Shown here: positions 3,872 to 51,814 of the stretch, piece by piece
How the letters are laid out: each line of letters begins with the position of its first letter
Position numbering within the stretch: position 1 is the stretch's first letter
Virus record (IMG/VR): IMGVR_UViG_3300037467_002078
Location: 1 to 53,655 of that record
Source: a virus
Taxonomy: Duplodnaviria > Caudoviricetes
Reading direction: 5' to 3' (one strand)
Length of the DNA: 53,655 nt
Program-made: the position numbers and the translations under genes
Notes under the pieces: model-generated
Database searches by the model: none
The model's input: only the letters and a program-made list of their open reading frames with translations
What the model was told of the DNA's origin: nothing

Positions 3872-4363
3872 CTATGGCCAAGTTTCCCATTTCCGACCAG
3901 CTGCAACCCAGAGTTTCTCCGACTCAGAATGAGGGTACGGTTCCACAAATACGATCCTCTCGCAGCTAGTGTTTAAAAGAAGTTTTACGCACGTCACACA
4001 TGGGCTGGTTGTGATATACGCCGTATGTATCTGATACACGTCATGGCACTGCAAGAGCGCGTTCTGCTCAGCATGGATTGCCTGACATGAGTCAAGGCCA
4101 GTCCCACTGGGAAGGTCAGCACCCTTGCAGGCAAAAGGGTACTCAGGTCTAGTGACGAAGCAGTGTCCATTCTCGTGCTGCCCCACCTGAAAATGGGCTT
4201 CGTTGCAGTGCGGAAGACCTGAGGCGACCCCGTTGTACCCAGTGGCAAGCACGTGCCCTCTGGCGTTCAGTAGAACGCAGCCAACTTGGCGTCGAACGCA
4301 CGTAGCCCTAAGCGAGGTCTGCCTTGCCAGTGAGATAGCCCATTCATCTCGGCTAGGACGCAT
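3872..4363 (-). CDS. dCMP deaminase
   Basis: ATCVRRQVGC, TGYNG, HAEQNA and PCVTC zinc-deaminase motifs; GGAGG RBS before ATG 4363. Confidence 0.92.
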   Translation of the reverse strand: MRPSRDEWAISLARQTSLRATCVRRQVGCVLLNARGHVLATGYNGVASGLPHCNEAHFQVGQHENGHCFVTRPEYPFACKGADLPSGTGLDSCQAIHAEQNALLQCHDVYQIHTAYITTSPCVTCVKLLLNTSCERIVFVEPYPHSESEKLWVAAGRKWETWP

Positions 4364-5171
4364 CTGCTGCCTCCCACCAACGGAGTGAGGAGCCTGGACT
4401 TGTCTCGCGTAAATCCTTAAGCGCGCGCAAGAGAACCTTCGGTGATTGCCAGAGCGTGGCCGGAGCCTCCTGCTGGCCTTCATCGTCCCATACCGAGTTG
4501 ATGATAGCCTTTGCTGCCTCCCAGTTAGATTCGTAGATGTGGCTTGACGCGGCAGTCAAGTGCAGAGTACCCGGTTTAACAACGAAGTTTTGTGGACCGA
4601 AGGTGTTGAGATATCCGCAGACCAGATAGGCAACCATGCAGAAGTTAAAAACGTCATACGGCACACCCAGCCAGATATCTGAGGAGCGCATGAAGACATG
4701 CGCATTCAACTCTAGTTCATCGTAGTGTGATTGTCTGATGTTAAAGAACATGGCCACGGTGCAGGGCACATCTTTTGTTACAGGTGGGTTCTCCCGCCAA
4801 ATGGTAAGTCCTGCTTGCCTGGAATCCCTGTCCTCTAAAAGCTTGTCGACCACGTAATGAAGCTGGGCTAAAATCTTAGGCCCGTAAGCCCCGAAGAATT
4901 TTACTCCGTCATCAGAGAACTTGGCGATGTTCGGATTATAGGGCGCGATCGTCTTCACCTTGTTGTCGCCGGAGACGATCCAGTACGCCTCAGCTGCCAT
5001 GAACTTGTAATTCAGTTTCCTGGCTGGCACCTTCAACACGGGTTTTCGCATGTTAACAGCGATGGTGTGCTGTGGCAGTTCTCGAGTGAGCATCCCTCTA
5101 GGGGAAACCTCATATCCAAAGTACAAAGCTGAGTGAAGCAGGCTGAGCCATGTTTTTGTAAAATCTATCAT
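4353..5171 (-). CDS. Thymidylate-synthase homologue, probable dCMP (hydroxy)methyltransferase
   Basis: EAYW, DSRQA, DVPCT (catalytic Cys), MRSSD, HIY motifs; LGVPYD has Asp where dUMP-specific ThyA has Asn. Confidence 0.85.
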   Translation of the reverse strand: MIDFTKTWLSLLHSALYFGYEVSPRGMLTRELPQHTIAVNMRKPVLKVPARKLNYKFMAAEAYWIVSGDNKVKTIAPYNPNIAKFSDDGVKFFGAYGPKILAQLHYVVDKLLEDRDSRQAGLTIWRENPPVTKDVPCTVAMFFNIRQSHYDELELNAHVFMRSSDIWLGVPYDVFNFCMVAYLVCGYLNTFGPQNFVVKPGTLHLTAASSHIYESNWEAAKAIINSVWDDEGQQEAPATLWQSPKVLLRALKDLRETSPGSSLRWWEAADAS

Positions 5172-14650: not shown

Positions 14651-15051
14651 AGTTTGTTGATTGAAACCGTGATGGCCGTAAAATGCTCGACCCCAGGAAC
14701 TTCCTTATCTTCGCTCCACCGCTCCTTGACTGCAACGTCAGACAGACGGCGCTGGAGGATTTCGAATGAGTTAGTCTTCTTAATGTAGCGATACAAGGCG
14801 TCCCAGTCCTTGACCTGCGGTACATCCTTCGAGACGATCGTCACGCGAGCCAGCTTGCCGGCAACACCTGACGCTTCTGACTTCGGTAGATTGTTGATGA
14901 TGTGATTCTTGAGCGCCTTCTCCTCTTCCTCAATTTCGTCAGCAACCTTTTGGATTGCCAGACGCTTATTGCGGAGCTCAAAAAGTTTGTCGGCGCAGGC
15001 GCCCATCGTTTTTGGTAATTTGAACTTCTGAGATGCTGCCGGTGTTGCCAT
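14647..15051 (-). CDS. Hypothetical coiled-coil replication-module protein
   Basis: Strong RBS; PQVKDWDALY...ILQRRLS...VPGV pattern typical of phage replication modules. Confidence 0.75.
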   Translation of the reverse strand: MATPAASQKFKLPKTMGACADKLFELRNKRLAIQKVADEIEEEEKALKNHIINNLPKSEASGVAGKLARVTIVSKDVPQVKDWDALYRYIKKTNSFEILQRRLSDVAVKERWSEDKEVPGVEHFTAITVSINKL

Positions 15052-15211
15052 GATACCCTCCCTTCGTTAGTGAACTTACTACACCCTGAACCCAATTGTT
15101 GTACATGACGTACAAGCTTGAAACCCATGGAACCAGCAGTAGCAATATCAGCATGATTACAACCGCTGCGCCAATTCCAGCTAGTACAGATTTCTGCCCT
15201 TTGCTGAACAT
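14978..15211 (-). CDS. Hypothetical membrane protein
   Basis: GGAGGAGG RBS, TM helix. Confidence 0.6.
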   Translation of the reverse strand: MFSKGQKSVLAGIGAAVVIMLILLLLVPWVSSLYVMYNNWVQGVVSSLTKGGYHGNTGSISEVQITKNDGRLRRQTF

Positions 15212-15231
15212 ACCCTCCTCCCGTTAAAGAA

Positions 15232-15430
15232 CCTACAACGAAGGTGTCAGGCCGGTGTGGACACATCAGCCGCTACGCCTCCCGCCACTCCGTTTACTGG
15301 ATACCTGCCCCTTGGACGTAGTGTGACCAGCTAGTCACACAAACACTTGGGCCATCGGCCAGTCCCGTCTCCCACTACGGTCTGCTCCTACCTAGACACC
15401 TTCGTTGTAGGGACCCTCATCTGAGGGCCC
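15232..15430 (-). ncRNA. Putative structured RNA: short hairpin plus ~180-nt domain closed by a 17-bp stem
   Basis: Perfect inverted repeat 15232-15248/15395-15411, internal hairpin 15321-15340, abutting hairpin 15411-15430. Confidence 0.6.
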
Positions 15431-15436
15431 AGGATT

Positions 15437-16123
15437 TTACTCTGAAAGAAATTTGTGCTTGGTTTCTCCCATTGGGCGGTGGATCGATTCTCCGCTTGCC
15501 GCAGCACGACCAGCGTGGTACCCCACTGCGCCGATCTTACGTTTCTGTGAGTCGGCTGTCCTACCACTCGTTAAGCGTTGAAATTCGTCCTCGATAAAAA
15601 CCTTAGTCTCATCCGAGAGGGCAAACTCGTGAACAGTCTTCGAGATTTCTCGAACCCAACCCTTGCAGAATCCGTCGGCTTCGACGGTCTTCCGAGTTCT
15701 GCCGCAATGTCCACCAAATCGAGCGATGAACTGAGCCCTTGCCCTTGCCATTTTCCGTTGAAGAACCTCGCAGGTGTAGTGAGCAATCGGCACCTGAGCC
15801 TTCAGGCCGATAAGAGTAAATGTGCCGAAGACGTTCACCGCGTGACTGGATGACTTAACCCACATTACCTTGCAACCAAAGGCTTTGGCTACCAAAGTAA
15901 CTAGAGAGACCTCGTAGTCTTTCAACTTTGACACAGAGAACTTGGATTTGAAATCAACCATGACAATTTCTGAGCGGCCCAAGTCAGACTGGGTTATATC
16001 GTACTTCTCCATCAACTTCTGAGCCTGGCGCAGGGCGGCGGCAGCCTCGTGAGGCTCAGAGGACTGGCTCAGCGCCAAGCACTTCTTGATCTTGTCCAGA
16101 ATTTTATCATCTAACTTGTCCAC
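15437..16123 (-). CDS. DUF2786-domain protein
   Basis: KILDKIKKCLALS...EAAAALRQAQKLMEKY N-terminus; GTG 16123 after GCTGAGGG. Confidence 0.85.
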   Translation of the reverse strand: MDKLDDKILDKIKKCLALSQSSEPHEAAAALRQAQKLMEKYDITQSDLGRSEIVMVDFKSKFSVSKLKDYEVSLVTLVAKAFGCKVMWVKSSSHAVNVFGTFTLIGLKAQVPIAHYTCEVLQRKMARARAQFIARFGGHCGRTRKTVEADGFCKGWVREISKTVHEFALSDETKVFIEDEFQRLTSGRTADSQKRKIGAVGYHAGRAAASGESIHRPMGETKHKFLSE

Positions 16124-16157
16124 GTTATATCCCTCAGCGTTGTGAATAACAGAGTAC

Positions 16158-16198
16158 ATTATACTGCAGTTCAATACTGGTGTAAATATTTATTTACA
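16158..16198 (-). promoter_or_regulatory. Sigma70-type promoter with palindromic -35 operator
   Basis: TTTACA-N17-TATAAT on minus strand (16186-16158); TGTAAA-tattta-TTTACA. Confidence 0.88.
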
Positions 16199-16207
16199 AG
16201 TTTATTG

Positions 16208-16329
16208 TTCAAAAGGAGGCCCTCCGTGGTCTGACAGCAGTTTCCGACTTGGCGAGATGTCAGATAATCTCGTTTACGTTTAACTGCCCACGAAAGGCCT
16301 CCTTTTGAAGGCCCTGGTTTTGCAGGGCC
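16208..16329 (-). ncRNA. Putative structured RNA: short hairpin plus ~100-nt pseudoknotted domain closed by a 22-bp stem
   Basis: 16208-16229 pairs with 16288-16309 (G-U pairs valid only on minus strand); nested stems and loop pairing; abutting hairpin 16310-16329. Confidence 0.65.
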
Positions 16330-16338
16330 CTCCGGAGA

Positions 16339-17316
16339 TTAAAGCGCTAAGGCTCTTTCCAATGCCTCAGTCTTCAGTGAATCACCGCGACCGTACCACG
16401 CTGAGGCGATCCGGTGGCTGTCGGTCTTCGCCCGAGCATGGTGGTCAACGAACTCGGTAACCGAATTTACCAAACCCCAGGCTGAACCTTCGGCTGAGAC
16501 CAACGTGCCGCCCATGGCCGAACCCTTGAACAAGTCCATGATCTTCTGGAACTGCTTAGACTTGCGCACATCTTCGCCCAAAACCGTGCCGGTGTCCTTC
16601 AGAAGGGCGTCAGTGAAGTCCTCGGCTTTCTCGTTGCTCATGCTCTTGGCAGCAAGCACACGAGCAGCCTTGAGGAAGTCGCCGAAGTGGCCACGTGCAA
16701 GACCCAGTTGGCTCTTGACTTCGTTTGCGTTGAAATGGCTGGTATGGCGGACGACAACTTCACGTTCGGCCTTGCCGGTCAGGGCCATGCTCAGCGTGTT
16801 GTTGCAGACAACGCGGATCGTCGTGAACCGAGCCGTGGTAGCCAGCGTGCCGTCACAGGACGAGCTGAGCAGCAGGTATCCGCCGATCTTGTCCTCGCCC
16901 ACGACGCAAGCCTCTTCGCCGATGGCCGCAAGAGCCCAGAACCGCTTGCCGTCGAACAACGTCCCAGCCGTGTTCAGCGTGTAGCCGTTGGCGTCGGTCA
17001 GGTCGCGGAAGAACTCCAGCACTTCGCCCGGTTGAACGACCTTGTACTTCTTGGACACGATCCCCAGTGCAGCCTTGCTGTCGGAACGGAACAGCACGTG
17101 CGACTCGGGGATGTCATGGAGACCAAGGTCTTCGCCCCTGGACGTAGCGTAGCGCACAACACCGCGTTGAATCGTCCAGTCCATCCCAGCAGCCTGTTTC
17201 CAGACTTCCAAATCGGCGCCGGCCTGGAGCTCTTGTCCAAGACCATGCCATGGGGTTTCGCCTACGTAGGCCATCTCAGCAAACCCATTCTTACGTACGG
17301 TAACGGCAGCAACCAT
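16339..17316 (-). CDS. DUF932 family phage/plasmid-like protein
   Basis: MAYVGETPWHGLG, YKVVQP, TAGTL..GK, SSCDG, TTIRVVCNNTL motifs. Confidence 0.9.
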   Translation of the reverse strand: MVAAVTVRKNGFAEMAYVGETPWHGLGQELQAGADLEVWKQAAGMDWTIQRGVVRYATSRGEDLGLHDIPESHVLFRSDSKAALGIVSKKYKVVQPGEVLEFFRDLTDANGYTLNTAGTLFDGKRFWALAAIGEEACVVGEDKIGGYLLLSSSCDGTLATTARFTTIRVVCNNTLSMALTGKAEREVVVRHTSHFNANEVKSQLGLARGHFGDFLKAARVLAAKSMSNEKAEDFTDALLKDTGTVLGEDVRKSKQFQKIMDLFKGSAMGGTLVSAEGSAWGLVNSVTEFVDHHARAKTDSHRIASAWYGRGDSLKTEALERALAL

Positions 17317-17370: not shown

Positions 17371-17411
17371 ATTATAGCTCGAATCTAGCGGCTTGTAAAC
17401 AGGTATTTACA
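17371..17411 (-). promoter_or_regulatory. Sigma70-type promoter with palindromic -35 operator
   Basis: TTTACA-N17-TATAAT on minus strand (17399-17371); TGTAAA-caggta-TTTACA; followed by hairpin and GCTGAGGAGG RBS. Confidence 0.88.
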
Positions 17412-19055: not shown

Positions 19056-19985
19056 CTACACCGCCACTGGCGCTTTAATCGCTGGATGCGGGTCGTAGCC
19101 TTCGAGGATAAAATCCTCGTATTTAAAATCGAAGATATCCTTGACGGCTGGGTTAAGGTGCATCCTGGGAAGGTTTCTCGGCCGCCTCGTGAGCTGTTCC
19201 AAGGCTTGATTGTAGTGGTTGCGATAAACGTGCGCGTCACCTAGAGTGTGGATAAATTCGCCAGGGACTGTATTTGTCACTTGTGCGACCATCATGGTAA
19301 GCAACGCGTATGACGCAATGTTGAACGGCACACCAAGAAAGATATCCGCGCTACGTTGATACAGCTGGCAGTCCAGCATCCTTGACGGAGCACCGACGGT
19401 GTCCATATAGTTGATGGCGTGACTAGTGGTGCTCCATACCCAATTGAGCTCGCGCTTCTTATCCGGGTCAAAAAATTTCCAACGCTCCGCGAACGTCATC
19501 GGCCGCGTGTTGAACTGAAACATCACATGGCATGGCGGCAAAGCCATCTCATCAATTAATCCAACATTCCATGAAGAAACAATCAAACGGCGGGAATCTG
19601 GGCTATCCTTGATCTGGTCGATTACCTGCGAAATTTGGTCAATGCCGCGCGTGTCAGCTGCCCTAGCGCCTCTGATATCAGGCCAGCTCCGCCACTGGGC
19701 TCCATAAATTGGCCCGAGGTCTCCATGCTTGTCTGCCCACTCGTCCCAAATGGTTACTCCGTTATCGTTCAGATACTTGATGTTCGTGCTGCCCTTAAGA
19801 AACCACAGCAGCTCATGAATGACGGACTTCAGGTGAATCTTCTTTGTCGTCAACAGTGGGAAGCCATCTTGCAAATTAAACCGCAGCTGGCGGCCGAACA
19901 CTGAGAAGGTGCCAGTGCCAGTGCGATCTTCCTTAATCGTTCCAGAACTCAAGACCTCACTGAGTAAACCAAGATATTGTTTCAT
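19056..19985 (-). CDS. thyA: Thymidylate synthase (canonical, dUMP-specific)
   Basis: [51 protein letters not shown]. Confidence 0.97.
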
Positions 19986-27088: not shown

Positions 27089-27487
27089 ATGCAAAAACCT
27101 GAAATTGGACAAGAAGTCGTGGTCTGCAAATCTGGTAATTTCGAAACTCACTACTACTTTGGGTACGTTGTAACAAAGATTTCACCGAAGGGCAACATCA
27201 CTATTGCTCAGAAAGACAACCCTGAGCACACCCGAATATTTAACGTGCGAGGTGAAGAACGCAGCACGATCTACTCGAAGTACGACCGCCCGTGGATCGA
27301 ACTCGATGTGCAAAGAATCCGCGAGGTTATTGCCCAGCGCCGGCGGACGACAGACGCCATCGCAGCAGTTTCAAAAATAAGGGCCGACGATATCTCGAGA
27401 AGATGGAATAAAGAACATCTGCAAGAGGAAATCGCCAGGCTCGAGCAACTGCTTGACGAAGCCAAGAAGAAGGTCGACGAAATCTAA
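27089..27487 (+). CDS. Hypothetical early protein
   Basis: GGGAG RBS, bounded by the linker repeats. Confidence 0.8.
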   Translation: MQKPEIGQEVVVCKSGNFETHYYFGYVVTKISPKGNITIAQKDNPEHTRIFNVRGEERSTIYSKYDRPWIELDVQRIREVIAQRRRTTDAIAAVSKIRADDISRRWNKEHLQEEIARLEQLLDEAKKKVDEI

Positions 27488-28294: not shown

Positions 28295-28368
28295 GGTCTT
28301 TGCTCCTGGGTCTTAGATCGTTGGTGGAAAAGTACATCTTTTGTGGTGAAAGTATGTCGCTTTCTCCC

Positions 28369-28611
28369 GCTACAGATTTGCTACAGCTACAGATTTTTCT
28401 TATACTATATATATCTCTCTAAGAATAAGGTAAATACATATAATATAGTACTATATCTTAATATACTTATATACTACTTTTTAACTTTCTTTCTAGAATA
28501 AGAGAAAAATCTGTAGTTGAGTAGTAGAGAGGCCCATTAGAATTTAAAAACAATAACTTATCTTCGCTACAGAATCTGCTACAGATTTGCTACAGATTAT
28601 TATTGTGTAGC
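28369..28611. other. Putative replication origin
   Basis: Very AT-rich core flanked by six GCTACAG direct repeats and a 14-bp inverted repeat (28387-28400/28503-28516). Confidence 0.6.
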
Positions 28612-38814: not shown

Positions 38815-39249
38815 ATGGCTGTAATAACACAAGCACAGGGAACGAGAAGCTCCGGCCTCCTCAGCCTCGCCTCATTAGCAACAGGAACTTACGCGGCGAC
38901 AGCGGCGATTGATTTGGGCGCTTCCATTCCTCTTGATGTGACGTTCGAGGTGGAATGCCTGCCAAGCGCCTCAACATCGGGGAACAAACAGCTTGTTCTT
39001 TTTGCAAAACTTTCACTGGACAACTCCAATTTCGGCAGCGGACCGGAAAGTGGAACAACGACTACAAACGAGCCCGATCTTCATTGGGTAGGTACGCTGC
39101 CGTGTAACGATAACACCACGCACAGGAGATTCTTTAATCTCGCGGGGTTGCCGATTACTAGATACTTGAAGTTGGTGATTAAGAATGACACCGGGGTTAC
39201 TTTGACTTCTGGAAACATATACAGGGCTGATATAACCGGAGCTGCGTAA
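38815..39249 (+). CDS. Putative virion structural protein
   Basis: Beta-rich, S/T/G-rich, strong RBS. Confidence 0.7.
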   Translation: MAVITQAQGTRSSGLLSLASLATGTYAATAAIDLGASIPLDVTFEVECLPSASTSGNKQLVLFAKLSLDNSNFGSGPESGTTTTNEPDLHWVGTLPCNDNTTHRRFFNLAGLPITRYLKLVIKNDTGVTLTSGNIYRADITGAA

Positions 39250-40958
39250 TGTCTGAGATAATCCTTCCCCGGATGCCAAGTCGGACCCCGCAAGGGGCGG
39301 CGGCGGTAATTGCCCCAAGTTTTGCGGAATATCAGCCCCGGATCGTGGTATTACCGCAATCTGGTGTGAACCTCATAAGTAACGAGGCAACACCGTTCGT
39401 TAATGGGGCGATAGTTCGGGATGGAATTATTGTCTTACCGGCAGGTACGGCTTATGTTGATCTTGGTTCAGCAGCAAACATAACGGTCAATGATTATACG
39501 ATAGTCTTAGTGTCGAGATTACGATCTTTCACCAACCAGTATGTAAGCCCTGCCGGGTTTAAGACAACGACAAATAATATTCTACCTTTTTACTCGACTA
39601 ACCCTTCCTATAAAGATATATCGTGGGCGAATGGCTCATCCGTAGGAACACAATTTTCCCTGACTCAGTTTGGTTCCATTACGGGGACATGGCATAAGCT
39701 CGTTTTTTCTAAGATAGGTGGGGTAGAAACGTTATGTTGTAATGGTCAGAAATTAACATCAGTCGCGGCAACGGCAACCGGCACAGTAACTGGAAATAGC
39801 TGTCTTGGTCAGCTGGCCCCGACTAACACCAGCCAGCCTTTTGATGGAGATATCTCACTTGCTGCGGTATTCTCTAAAGGGTTTCCTGATAACCTGGCAA
39901 GGAAGGTGTCGGAAGACCCGAGAGTTCTTTTCAAGGCCCCCGCCCGAAGGTTATGGGTGGTGGAGGCTGGAGGCTCGCAGACGCTCAACCCGTCTGAGGC
40001 GGCTTCAACAAGTGCAGGCTCCACGCCAACTCTTACTCCAGGCGCTCTTACACTGAACCCGAGCGCGGCGAGTTCGACCAGCGCTGGGTCAGTACCAACC
40101 CTTTCGCAAGGGGTGGTTGTGTTGTCGCCTGCCGCGGCGAGTTCGACCAGCGCGGGGTCAGTACCAACCCTTACCGCTGGCGCAAGAACAGTATCCCCAG
40201 CTGCGGCGAACTCAACAAGTGCGGGTTCTACGCCGACGCTTACACCGGGAGTTGTAGTTCTTGCACCAGCTGCCGCGGTTTCCACAAGCGCTGGGATTGA
40301 TCCGTCGTTAGGTGGAGCTGGAGCGCTAAATCCTGCTGCCGCGGTTTCCACGAGCGCGGGTTCTACACCAACGTTGTCGGCGGGCGCAGTTACGCTGAAC
40401 CCTGCTGCAGCAGTTTCAACGAGCGCGGGATCAACGCCAACTTTGAGCAATGGGTCGGTGCTGCAGCCATCTCCGGCCAATTCAACAAGCGCGGGGTCAA
40501 CGCCAACTTTAACCGCGGGAATTGTATCACTAGTCCCAACACCTGCATCATCGACAAGCGCTGGGGCTACTCCAACCCTGAACCCTGGCGTAGCGACCCT
40601 AGCGCCAGCCGCCGGAGTAGCTTCATCCACCGGATCAACGCCCGTCCTCAGTAATGGATCGGTTCTGTCTCCGGCAGCGGCTAATGCACAAAGCGCAGGA
40701 TCGACACCAACATTGACGCCCGGCGCCGCGACAATGGCACCAACTTCAGCAGGATCGACATCTGCTGGAAGCACACCTGCTCTCACTCCAGGTGCTGTTG
40801 TGCTAACGCTTGTAGTTGCAAATGCGCAAAGCAGCGGAGTTGATCCGATCGTGACCGGCGGCAGTCCAAATGTGAGGTTGCATCCACGTTATTACGAAAT
40901 AGCTGCAGAGGACAGGAATTATGCCATCGCAGCAGAAAACAGAAGATATACTGTCTAA
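39249..40958 (+). CDS. Putative fibre protein: LamG/ConA-like N-terminal domain plus 13 Ser/Thr/Ala/Pro-rich repeats
   Basis: TWHKLV...NG...FDGDISLAAVF LamG-like pattern; repeats xTLNPAAAxSTSAGSTPTLTxG. Confidence 0.75.
   Translation: MSEIILPRMPSRTPQGAAAVIAPSFAEYQPRIVVLPQSGVNLISNEATPFVNGAIVRDGIIVLPAGTAYVDLGSAANITVNDYTIVLVSRLRSFTNQYVSPAGFKTTTNNILPFYSTNPSYKDISWANGSSVGTQFSLTQFGSITGTWHKLVFSKIGGVETLCCNGQKLTSVAATATGTVTGNSCLGQLAPTNTSQPFDGDISLAAVFSKGFPDNLARKVSEDPRVLFKAPARRLWVVEAGGSQTLNPSEAASTSAGSTPTLTPGALTLNPSAASSTSAGSVPTLSQGVVVLSPAAASSTSAGSVPTLTAGARTVSPAAANSTSAGSTPTLTPGVVVLAPAAAVSTSAGIDPSLGGAGALNPAAAVSTSAGSTPTLSAGAVTLNPAAAVSTSAGSTPTLSNGSVLQPSPANSTSAGSTPTLTAGIVSLVPTPASSTSAGATPTLNPGVATLAPAAGVASSTGSTPVLSNGSVLSPAAANAQSAGSTPTLTPGAATMAPTSAGSTSAGSTPALTPGAVVLTLVVANAQSSGVDPIVTGGSPNVRLHPRYYEIAAEDRNYAIAAENRRYTV
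39978..40860 (+). repeat. Intragenic tandem repeat, 13 units of 22-23 codons
   Basis: Counted from the translation; protein conserved, codons diverged. Confidence 0.9.
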
Positions 40959-51147: not shown

Positions 51148-51814
51148 CTTGGCAAGATACACACCGCTCGTGGTAGGAGCGGCGAAGCGGCTGCACTGCA
51201 CCCTTCCCTACAGTTCTATCATCTCGATCGATGACCTTATTCAGGTTGGAATGGTAGGACTGATGCAGGCTCTTGACGAGTACGAGGACAAGGGTTACCA
51301 GTTCACTACGTACGCTAATGCACGCGTGAAAGGAGCTATGCTAGACGAGCTGCGAAAGCATGATCATTTACCAAGAAAAGCGAGGGTCGGAGTTGGATGC
51401 TTTAAAAAGACTCGGGATGCTCTAACGGCTTCACTAGGGAGGTTTCCTACGCGTGGTGAAATAGCTGCTAAGATGGGGGTCAGTTTAAACGATTGCCTTG
51501 ATATCGAGATGATTGATGAGTTTGCTTTTATCACACTGACAAGCGACGAGAATAAAAGTGGTGAAGCAGACTTGTTGGAAAATCTTTATGCGACAGAGCA
51601 AACCCCATTGGATATTCTTATTGAGAAGAATGCACTAGAGGTAATCAACTGCAAGATGAAAGATTTACCAGAAAAACAAAGGTTGGCCATGCAGTTATAC
51701 TACGGCGAAGGCCTGAGGATGAAAGAGGTTGGGGAAACCATCGGTGTTAGTGAGAGCAGAGTGTGCCAACTACTTAGCAGGGCAGTGGCGCATCTTAAAG
51801 AGCAGTACTTTTAA
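51131..51814 (+). CDS. fliA: FliA/WhiG (sigma28)-like RNA polymerase sigma factor
   Basis: Region 2 DDLIQVGMVGL...FTTYA..RVKGAMLDELRK.D..PR, region 3 LGRFPT..EIA, region 4 LP...LYY.EGL.MKEVG..IGVSESRVCQL; start uncertain. Confidence 0.92.
   Translation: MPLSSDLARYTPLVVGAAKRLHCTLPYSSIISIDDLIQVGMVGLMQALDEYEDKGYQFTTYANARVKGAMLDELRKHDHLPRKARVGVGCFKKTRDALTASLGRFPTRGEIAAKMGVSLNDCLDIEMIDEFAFITLTSDENKSGEADLLENLYATEQTPLDILIEKNALEVINCKMKDLPEKQRLAMQLYYGEGLRMKEVGETIGVSESRVCQLLSRAVAHLKEQYF

Follow-up and report, generated by a model that had tools for sequence, protein, structure and literature searches.

A two-part hairpin element behind genes of related phages, possibly an intercistronic site of RNA processing and stability

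The virus record IMGVR_UViG_3300037467_002078 (Duplodnaviria; Caudoviricetes), which was analysed over its whole length and is called the window here, is complete: it comprises 53,655 bp of phage DNA with direct terminal repeats of 127 bp. A 102-nt hairpin lies on its minus strand, shortly after the end of a gene encoding a DUF932 protein. This hairpin is a genuine structured element, and it would form the larger part of a bipartite RNA element located at the 3′ end of the DUF932 transcript. The two parts are a small GC hairpin (CCCUS-loop-SAGGG) and, directly after it, a long hairpin with a basal helix of 17–22 bp. At least seven units with this layout were found in five related phage records, namely two in the window (units 1 and 2), two in record G003 and one each in G004, G005 and G009; the searches were pattern-led and the count is a lower bound. 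We tentatively propose that the unit is an intercistronic module of RNA processing and stability, probably combining an RNase III-type site with a 3′ hairpin that protects, a reading that we regard as possible rather than established. The evidence is wholly computational and comes from seven units, four of which are close kin.

Unit 1 is composed of the following parts:

16310..16330, minus strand: small GC hairpin, GGGCCCUG-CAAAAC-CAGGGCC, seen in the minimum free energy (MFE) fold
16208..16309, minus strand: long hairpin, with a basal helix of 22 bp (16288–16309 paired with 16208–16229, two U·G pairs)
Interior of the long hairpin, minus strand: 7-nt bulge, 6-bp helix, 9/10-nt internal loop and 6-bp hairpin with an 8-nt loop

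The small hairpin begins 8 nt past the DUF932 stop codon and adjoins the long one. The outer arms of the long hairpin, 22 nt each, are 91% complementary as DNA, and the two positions that depart from Watson-Crick pairing are U·G on the minus strand and C·A on the plus strand. A preliminary description of this DNA reported the outer helix, two inner helices and a complementarity between a loop and a linker, and all of them can be read from the sequence where it placed them. The inner helix GCAGTT/AACTGC occupies 16237–16242/16282–16287, the inner hairpin CGAGAT/ATCTCG occupies 16253–16258/16267–16272, and the linker TCTGAC (16230–16235) is the exact reverse complement of the loop GTCAGA (16259–16264), a match that grows to 7 nt if the closing pair opens. 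The same description confined the G·U pairs of the outer helix to the minus strand, which is right; in the inner hairpin, two extra G·U pairs form on the plus strand only, and the interior folds at −17.1 kcal/mol on that strand vs −14.1 kcal/mol on the minus strand. Since these inner pairs favor the plus strand, unit 1 alone cannot fix the strand on which the element works.

The folding of this region is exceptional in the genome. On the minus strand the 171-nt intergenic stretch folds at −70.7 kcal/mol (z = −8.58), a value equaled by none of 200 shuffled sequences, and the plus strand gives −70.3 kcal/mol (z = −7.01 against shuffles). Among 10,710 sliding 110-nt segments taken from both strands, the minus-strand segment at 16201 shows the largest GC-corrected folding deviation of the genome (z = −5.35). 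The 58-nt interior, taken alone, is modestly structured, being matched by 4.25% (minus strand) and 1.8% (plus strand) of 2000 shuffles. Shuffling produces a 6-nt complement between this loop and this linker in 0.12% of cases; if any two unpaired segments are allowed, the share is 1.4%, or 0.64% when the segments are defined by the MFE fold.

The second unit of the window lies behind the next gene on the same strand, which encodes a DUF2786/DUF7168 protein and so has a unit on either side:

15412..15429, minus strand: small GC hairpin of unit 2, GGCCCUC-AGAU-GAGGGUC, a few nucleotides past the DUF2786 stop codon
15232..15411, minus strand: long hairpin of unit 2, with a perfect basal helix of 17 bp (15395–15411 paired with 15232–15248) and an interior of 146 nt

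Unit 2 as a whole (15232–15429) folds at −100.3 kcal/mol (z = −4.56), and it is followed by a ribosome-binding site and an ATG at 15211, without a promoter. A listed ORF of 141 aa (14841–15266) begins inside the long hairpin and overlaps two better-placed genes (region 15051–15266), and it is probably spurious. These genes are an ORF of 77 aa with a hydrophobic segment, starting from the ATG at 15211, and a phrog_13900 gene starting from the ATG at 15051; each has a ribosome-binding site of the GGGAGG type.

The further units were recovered by several routes. The pattern CCCTSN{4,6}SAGGG matches the window only in its two units (in unit 1 at 16312–16327). In fifteen related records it gave 19 further sites, of which four are the units of G004, G005 and G009 and unit 1 of G003, and the other 15 fall in coding DNA and have no long hairpin. 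A scan for long Watson-Crick stems over six whole records (294.8 kb) returned 10 stems, six of them belonging to units; the second unit of G003, whose small hairpin has a longer loop, was found in this way. Units of G005 and G003 were found by an alignment-based search together with a flank pattern. The G004 unit, located through a DUF2786 protein search of five related records, precedes a DUF2786 homologue, and the order there is the stop codon of another gene, CCCUC-GCAA-GAGGG, a long hairpin of 112 nt and ATTGCAAATAGTTG-TTTACA-17-TATAAT. Two other palindromes were seen in the same material. One, of about 110 nt, lies upstream of the DUF2786 homologue of another relative (L244:1163–1271) and carries in its arms outward-facing, promoter-like TTTACA...TACTAT boxes (divergent promoters). 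The other (G005:27452–27508, in L351) is a 17-bp hairpin with a 23-nt loop between divergent genes, and is not of the two-hairpin type.

The core CCCU/AGGG is shared by the small hairpins of all seven units, and their loops are CAAAAC, AGAU, GGAU, GGAA, GCAA, UGAAC and one of 12 nt, two of the seven being of the GNRA type. Four units (G003 unit 1, G004, G005 and G009) follow the same upstream gene, whose product ends in WYRCELRRKG[H/Y], and have homologous flanks. The first seven pairs of their long helices are identical; of 19 basal positions, nine are invariant and nine have changed in both arms, and all four units have a pair at 15. When all seven units are compared over 17 basal positions, the 119 cells comprise 112 Watson-Crick pairs, three G·U pairs and four others. 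These pairs were counted by script from the base of the helix, and a MAFFT alignment of the four related units kept the 5′ arm in register and split the 3′ arm. The interiors, of 40–146 nt, are conserved neither in length nor in sequence, and no motif can be aligned among the units. The complementarity of the pseudoknot type occurs in one of the six units tested (unit 1; G009 was outside the test), and in the other five the complements have at most 4 nt, a length that 9–100% of shuffles attain. Small ORFs inside the hairpins, judged by eye, are inconsistent between units, and the arms of the long hairpins have no purine/pyrimidine asymmetry, with 8–9 purines in 18 positions per arm. This pattern of change suggests that the basal helix is maintained by selection and that the interior is free to vary.

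The position of the units is also regular. Six of the seven start no more than about 20 nt from a stop codon, and what comes next is a promoter in four of them and a ribosome-binding site with a start codon, without a promoter, in three. Downstream of the upstream gene shared by four units are found a promoter and a DUF2786 gene twice, a promoter and another gene once, and an ORF for a 36-aa membrane protein once. Since the downstream neighbor varies behind one and the same upstream gene, the unit is to be assigned to the upstream gene, at its 3′ end, and its association with DUF932 in the window is one instance and not the rule. No U-run follows the long helix in four of the seven units; in unit 1 a UUUU lies inside the base of the helix, and in unit 2 UUCUUU follows the helix.

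The polarity of the units relative to the genes is the same throughout. In five of the seven the sense strand folds better than the antisense strand, and the difference reaches 12.1 kcal/mol in unit 2 of the window (long hairpin, −82.8 vs −70.7 kcal/mol) and 15.1 kcal/mol in unit 2 of G003, where the helix is extended by five G·U pairs on the sense strand only. These comparisons are moderate evidence that the units act as RNA on the sense strand, which is the minus strand in the window. The preliminary description of a structured RNA thus holds in its first part, the structure being real and, in view of six further units, their compensatory changes and the bias in five of seven, most plausibly formed by minus-strand RNA.

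Outside this family no copy of the element was found. A blastn search with positions 16100–16400 against 50,697 phage records gave no match, and five sequence patterns detected no related copy in viral and genome collections. Patterns built on the gapped outer stem, the inner hairpin and the anchored loop had no match in viral contigs, and two-arm and loop-anchored patterns had none in genome contigs. The pattern AAAGGAGGCCNNNCGTGG was too loose when applied to viral contigs, as none of its 119 matches had a partner arm and the best showed 5 mismatches in 18 positions. With the DUF2786 protein as a single query, no relatives were recovered from viral or metagenome contigs. The sequencing run X1, which is probably the source of the record, covers the stretch and shows no variants in the element. 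Among the public sequencing runs the phage appears in no RNA run, and run X2 contains no more than short stretches of other genes. Of five papers found on DUF2786, none concerns RNA, judged by titles and the openings of abstracts, in a search that was not aimed at the two-hairpin motif.

The preliminary description proposed a check for covariation downstream of DUF932 homologues, and in the loci searched there the element was not found. Its covariance model R1 matched none of 99 other loci, nearly all of them DUF932 surroundings, and had no match in five whole related records. Around 35 viral and two GenBank loci with DUF932 homologues, sequence similarity was limited to chance matches (E ≥ 0.088), and so it was in a blastn search over 238 DUF932-surrounding loci. 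In metagenome contigs, the best 80 DUF932 loci included a full-length top match with 71% identity, and none carried the element. The eight closest viral homologues (62–76% identity) have at this place a simple GC hairpin or run straight into the next gene; in loci L006 and L009, the simple hairpin is followed by a TTTACA-17-TATAAT promoter.

The genes near unit 1 are all on the minus strand, in the order P1, DUF932 gene, small GC hairpin, 102-nt hairpin, P2 and DUF2786/DUF7168 gene:

17371..17399, minus strand: promoter-like site P1, TTTACA-17-TATAAT, 11 of 12 consensus positions, upstream of DUF932
16339..17316, minus strand: DUF932 gene, 325 aa (Pfam PF06067, E = 7.6e-58; phrog_1221), with unit 1 at its 3′ end
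16158..16186, minus strand: promoter-like site P2, TTTACA-17-TATAAT, with an AT-rich stretch upstream
15437..16123, minus strand: DUF2786/DUF7168 gene (Pfam PF10979 and PF23771)

P1 and P2 are the two exact matches of the strict promoter pattern in the window, where none is expected, and a looser pattern gives three. An AT-rich gap of 21 nt separates the long hairpin of unit 1 from the first hexamer of P2. Promoters homologous to P2 precede DUF2786 homologues in loci L242, L243, L245, L248 and L249, and a motif CTGAGGA ahead of the start codon recurs in the leaders of such homologues. The DUF2786/DUF7168 gene likely starts at the GTG at 16123, after the conserved ribosome-binding site GCTGAGGGA; the ORF is listed from an earlier point (16174 or 16159), and alignments with homologues begin near residues 17–27 of the ORF with the ATG start. 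In the DUF932 leader downstream of P1 (17340–17370, minus strand), a hairpin TCGAGCA-ATCC-TGCTCGA stands just before the ribosome-binding site GCTGAGGAGG.

Among the other gene products of the phage are Pol A, a ligase, a primase-helicase, an SNF2 helicase, nucleases and enzymes of nucleotide metabolism, and among 30 window proteins scanned there was no RNase III, reverse transcriptase, transposase or integrase. At 3872–5171 and 19056–19985 (minus strand) are found a dCMP deaminase, a canonical thymidylate synthase (E = 6.3e-118) and a divergent protein similar to thymidylate synthase (E = 1.4e-17). That there are two enzymes of this fold, one of them divergent, might indicate that the phage DNA contains a modified pyrimidine. 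An ORF of 569 aa (39249–40958) contains, at 39990–40769 on the plus strand, seven diverged repeat copies spaced 69 nt or multiples thereof, and likely encodes a repetitive structural protein. At 27089–27487 (plus strand) there is a weak match to a phage ProQ C-terminal-like domain (E = 0.0011; 20.1 bits vs a cut-off of 27 bits). ProQ/FinO proteins bind structured 3′ ends of RNA, and this protein could be a partner of the hairpin units.

The likeness of the units to known phage systems is partial in each case. The region of unit 1 resembles the PeSL motif of T4-type phages (PMC2839356, PMC4122927), which is likewise intergenic, combines a GC-rich stem-loop, an AT-rich stretch and a strong sigma-70-like promoter, and borders variable genes, with the adjoining gene content shuffled between relatives. 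In the window the three components are the hairpin at 16310–16330, the AT-rich stretch and the TTTACA-17-TATAAT at 16186–16158, so that the region may work like a PeSL, a likeness that does not by itself imply descent from the T4-type motif. The differences are that a PeSL, as presented there, has a single short stem-loop, the long hairpin being extra in unit 1, and that it occurs as many near-identical copies flanking ORFans in one T4-type phage, whereas the window has two units of differing sequence and a gene content that is not T4-like, and no genome here has more than two units.

The signals cut by RNase III in the early mRNAs of T7 provide another parallel. According to PMC3867540, the T7 early mRNA is cut at five intercistronic signals, the hairpins left at 3′ ends are determinants of stability, and the idealised substrate of Escherichia coli RNase III is a helix of 22 bp, or two helical turns. 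Those signals are, and the units described here would be, intercistronic hairpins in host-transcribed early messages with a helix near two turns, and the stabilization of the upstream mRNA by a 3′-end hairpin, given for T7 in the same text, is what is proposed for the units. With respect to helix length (about 20–22 bp, mostly regular), unit 1 has 22 bp and the other units have 17–19 bp or more. The sites of T7 are hairpins of about 60 nt in which an internal loop directs cleavage of a single strand. The units, unlike them, have an uninterrupted helix of 17–22 bp, a large and variable interior and a separate, conserved small hairpin ahead.

The leader of the lambda N gene folds in a similar manner: a small GC hairpin and, one nucleotide further, a large hairpin whose basal stem is long precede the ribosome-binding site. 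The nutL/N leader and the units share a stem of the GCCCU/AGGGC type, a spacing of 0–2 nt to the large hairpin with its long basal stem, and the next ribosome-binding site; and nutR lies just past the cro stop codon, downstream of an early promoter, as the units do. The N leader is described as highly structured in PMC5725501, where the title of a cited paper names RNase III modulation of its repression. Unlike lambda nut sites, the units have no clear boxA before the hairpin and different loops, no N-like protein was found in the phage, which is unrelated to lambda, and a promoter rather than a gene follows in four of seven. Taken together, the long hairpin resembles the RNase III signals of phages and the hairpin of the lambda N leader.

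On these grounds we favor, with the reserve expressed above, the reading of the unit as a processing and stability module. We infer that the element is transcribed and that its long helix would be a substrate of a double-strand-specific RNase, the host RNase III, with consequences for the stability of the mRNA. Cleavage would separate the upstream message from what follows, and the small hairpin would remain as the protective 3′ end of the upstream mRNA. After a cut through both strands of the long helix, the upstream message would end in the small hairpin, and this would account for the two hairpins always occurring together. Where a gene lies directly downstream, as in unit 2, the cut would give its message a new 5′ end next to the ribosome-binding site, and unit 1, in its PeSL-like junction of stem-loop, AT-rich stretch and sigma-70 promoter, would also mark the border of two transcription units. 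The inner helices and the loop-linker complement of unit 1 would be incidental filler. A regular helix of about two turns that is kept, around an interior that does not matter, is what a double-strand-specific nuclease needs.

Several observations weigh against this proposal. The basal helices of the other units, with 17–19 bp, are shorter than the ideal of 22 bp; this ideal is that of E. coli RNase III, and the enzyme of the phage's host may differ in specificity. Long palindromes with perfect pairing can stay symmetrical through processes at the DNA level, so compensatory change alone is no proof of a function as RNA. In two of the seven units (G003 unit 1 and G009) the antisense strand folds better by 2.5–2.7 kcal/mol, and two units have on the sense strand an A·C or C·A mismatch that would be G·U on the antisense strand. 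The conservation of the small hairpin together with the first 7–10 bp of the helix in four units suggests recognition of a specific sequence, for which RNase III has no obvious need. The loop-linker complement of unit 1 (P about 0.006–0.014) is left unexplained.

The leading rival is a nut-like site, in which the small hairpin would correspond to boxB, a boxA-like sequence would recruit Nus factors, and the folded long hairpin would bring these parts together with the next ribosome-binding site, as in the lambda N leader, for processive antitermination, control of translation, or both. We consider it unlikely, and it overlaps with the processing module, since cleavage by RNase III could modulate such a site. 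One sequence that bears on this reading is the following:

15222..15232, minus strand: GTTCTTTAACG, agreeing with 10 of 11 positions of the boxA consensus GYTCTTTAANA, directly 3′ of the long hairpin of unit 2

In lambda, boxB is GCCCT-GAAAA/GAAGA-AGGGC and boxA is CGCTCTTA (lambda record), and the consensus is given for gamma-proteobacteria in PMC5725501. All seven units have the CCCU/AGGG core of the lambda stem, unit 1 having GCCCUG-CAAAAC-CAGGGC, and in four units GCUCUU stands directly 3′ of the small hairpin. The window is arranged as P1, DUF932, unit 1 and P2, DUF2786, unit 2, so that both units are placed just past the stop codon of the first gene behind a strong promoter, like nutR after cro. 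The layout of the lambda N leader, with a boxB hairpin, a large hairpin and a Shine-Dalgarno sequence with AUG, is reproduced in unit 2 of the window, unit 2 of G003 and G009.

Against this, the GTTCTTTAACG sequence, with the next ribosome-binding site on its 3′ side, may just as well represent a U-rich tail, and matches to boxA with at most one mismatch are not enriched in the window (8 vs 6.7 expected; 36 of 100 shuffles have at least 8). The loops of the small hairpins vary from 4 to 5, 6 and 12 nt, with GNRA tetraloops in two of seven; the hairpin precedes boxA, in contrast to the lambda order of boxA and then boxB; and in four of the seven units the boxA-like bases are locked in the long helix. 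A scan of all ORFs of at least 35 aa gave no convincing small arginine-rich N-like ORF, its top scorers being mostly artefacts of alternate frames, and N-like proteins are too short and divergent for such a scan to exclude them. The phage, with its Pol A, ligase, primase-helicase and nucleotide-metabolism genes, is not lambdoid. If a nut-like RNA device did exist in this non-lambdoid clade, an outcome to which we give a low probability, it would decide if the polymerase continues and if the next gene is translated, with the interior as a spacer that times folding and, in unit 1, with a loop-linker pseudoknot that could tune it; lambda-style antitermination and translation control would then extend to an unrelated group of phages. 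Perfect matches to the boxA consensus occur at 4739–4749 and 51793–51803 (minus strand), the first inside the thymidylate synthase-like ORF, and near matches are at the level of chance.

A plain transcription terminator or attenuator is an equally improbable full account. Here the two tandem stem-loops would end or damp upstream transcription, without any role in processing. The units resemble intrinsic terminators in having a GC-rich stem after a stop codon, and unit 1 has an A-tract and U-tract at the base of the helix; they stand just ahead of a promoter in four of seven cases, and the simple GC hairpins with a similar promoter of the closest DUF932 homologues occupy the same place. The PeSL stem-loops of T4-type phages are reported to terminate transcription in PMC2839356. 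Unit 1 ends in GGCCUCCUUUU, and UUCUUU is found after unit 2. The short loop of 3–8 nt expected in a terminator with a GC stem is seen in the small hairpin, but the loop would be of 58 nt in the long hairpin of unit 1 and of 40–146 nt across the units, and the tails of the small hairpins are weak. It is unlikely that efficient termination explains the units fully, because in three of the seven units the downstream gene has no promoter of its own, needs read-through and would be silenced, four of the seven long helices lack a U-run, and a terminator scan called none on the minus strand at the hairpin of unit 1. This reading also leaves unexplained why a helix of 17–22 bp is kept beside a small hairpin that is already adequate.

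It is more doubtful still that the units act in DNA, as palindromes that form a cruciform or hairpin site for recombination, module exchange or protein binding and mark the borders of gene cassettes. The unit stays with its upstream gene while the downstream content differs, which would place recombination breakpoints just 3′ of the hairpin; the DUF2786 gene of the window is flanked by units on both sides, the PeSL motif offers a precedent, and in three of seven units the folding energies of the two strands are similar. The large advantage of the sense strand in two units is, however, due to G·U pairs, which are C·A in the other strand and mismatched in duplex DNA. Four patterns gave no further copy of the sequence in the viral and genome collections, no target-site duplication flanks the element, and the 30 proteins scanned include no transposase, integrase or reverse transcriptase. 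This also speaks against a role in DNA, as does the presence of a likely origin or regulatory region elsewhere, at 28340–28600. That region lies between leftward early and rightward late genes and has iteron-like repeats GCTACAGAT(T), in both orientations, flanking an extremely AT-rich core; it is probably the origin or the main regulatory region, and the inverted repeat I1 (28384–28519) lies within it. A replication origin at the element was rejected in view of these repeats and core, and a miniature inverted-repeat transposable element (MITE) or other mobile palindromic repeat was rejected as no other copy was found in the window or the collections and no direct repeat flanks the arms.

The compact pseudoknotted ribozyme or ligand-binding aptamer of the preliminary description is very improbable: the loop-linker complement is rare among shuffles and the interior of unit 1 folds somewhat better than they do, but the interior is unconserved in the six related units, the pseudoknot is missing from the five others tested, and the element precedes the promoter from which the next gene would be read and is not part of that gene's leader. 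This reading is without support beyond the chance statistics of one copy. Searches of Rfam 15 agree with this. The whole window had no match at the gathering score, with hammerhead, twister, twister-sister, pistol, hatchet, HDV-like and riboswitch families included, and a permissive search of 16150–16360 up to E = 10 gave seven matches, none of them a ribozyme or a riboswitch, the best being unrelated fragments with 7.5–22.4 bits vs gathering scores of 33–80. Nothing was found for unit 2 and three related loci either, and so no Rfam family covers the two-hairpin element at any of these places.

The dense fold noticed in one sequence was a true structural signal, and what appears to be under selection is the plain outer helix with the adjoining small hairpin, which lay outside the coordinates first described, and not the inner pseudoknot. 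Intercistronic hairpin signals are of a known kind in phages, and the conserved two-part form is unusual. The element sits exactly where relatives exchange gene modules, which makes it relevant to the way in which regulatory cassettes move along with genes. If the proposed processing and stability module is real, a clade of uncultured soil and freshwater phages would mark the ends of some early genes with an RNA signal that is absent from Rfam, and its recognition could help to annotate metagenomic phage genomes for transcription units and sites of mRNA processing.

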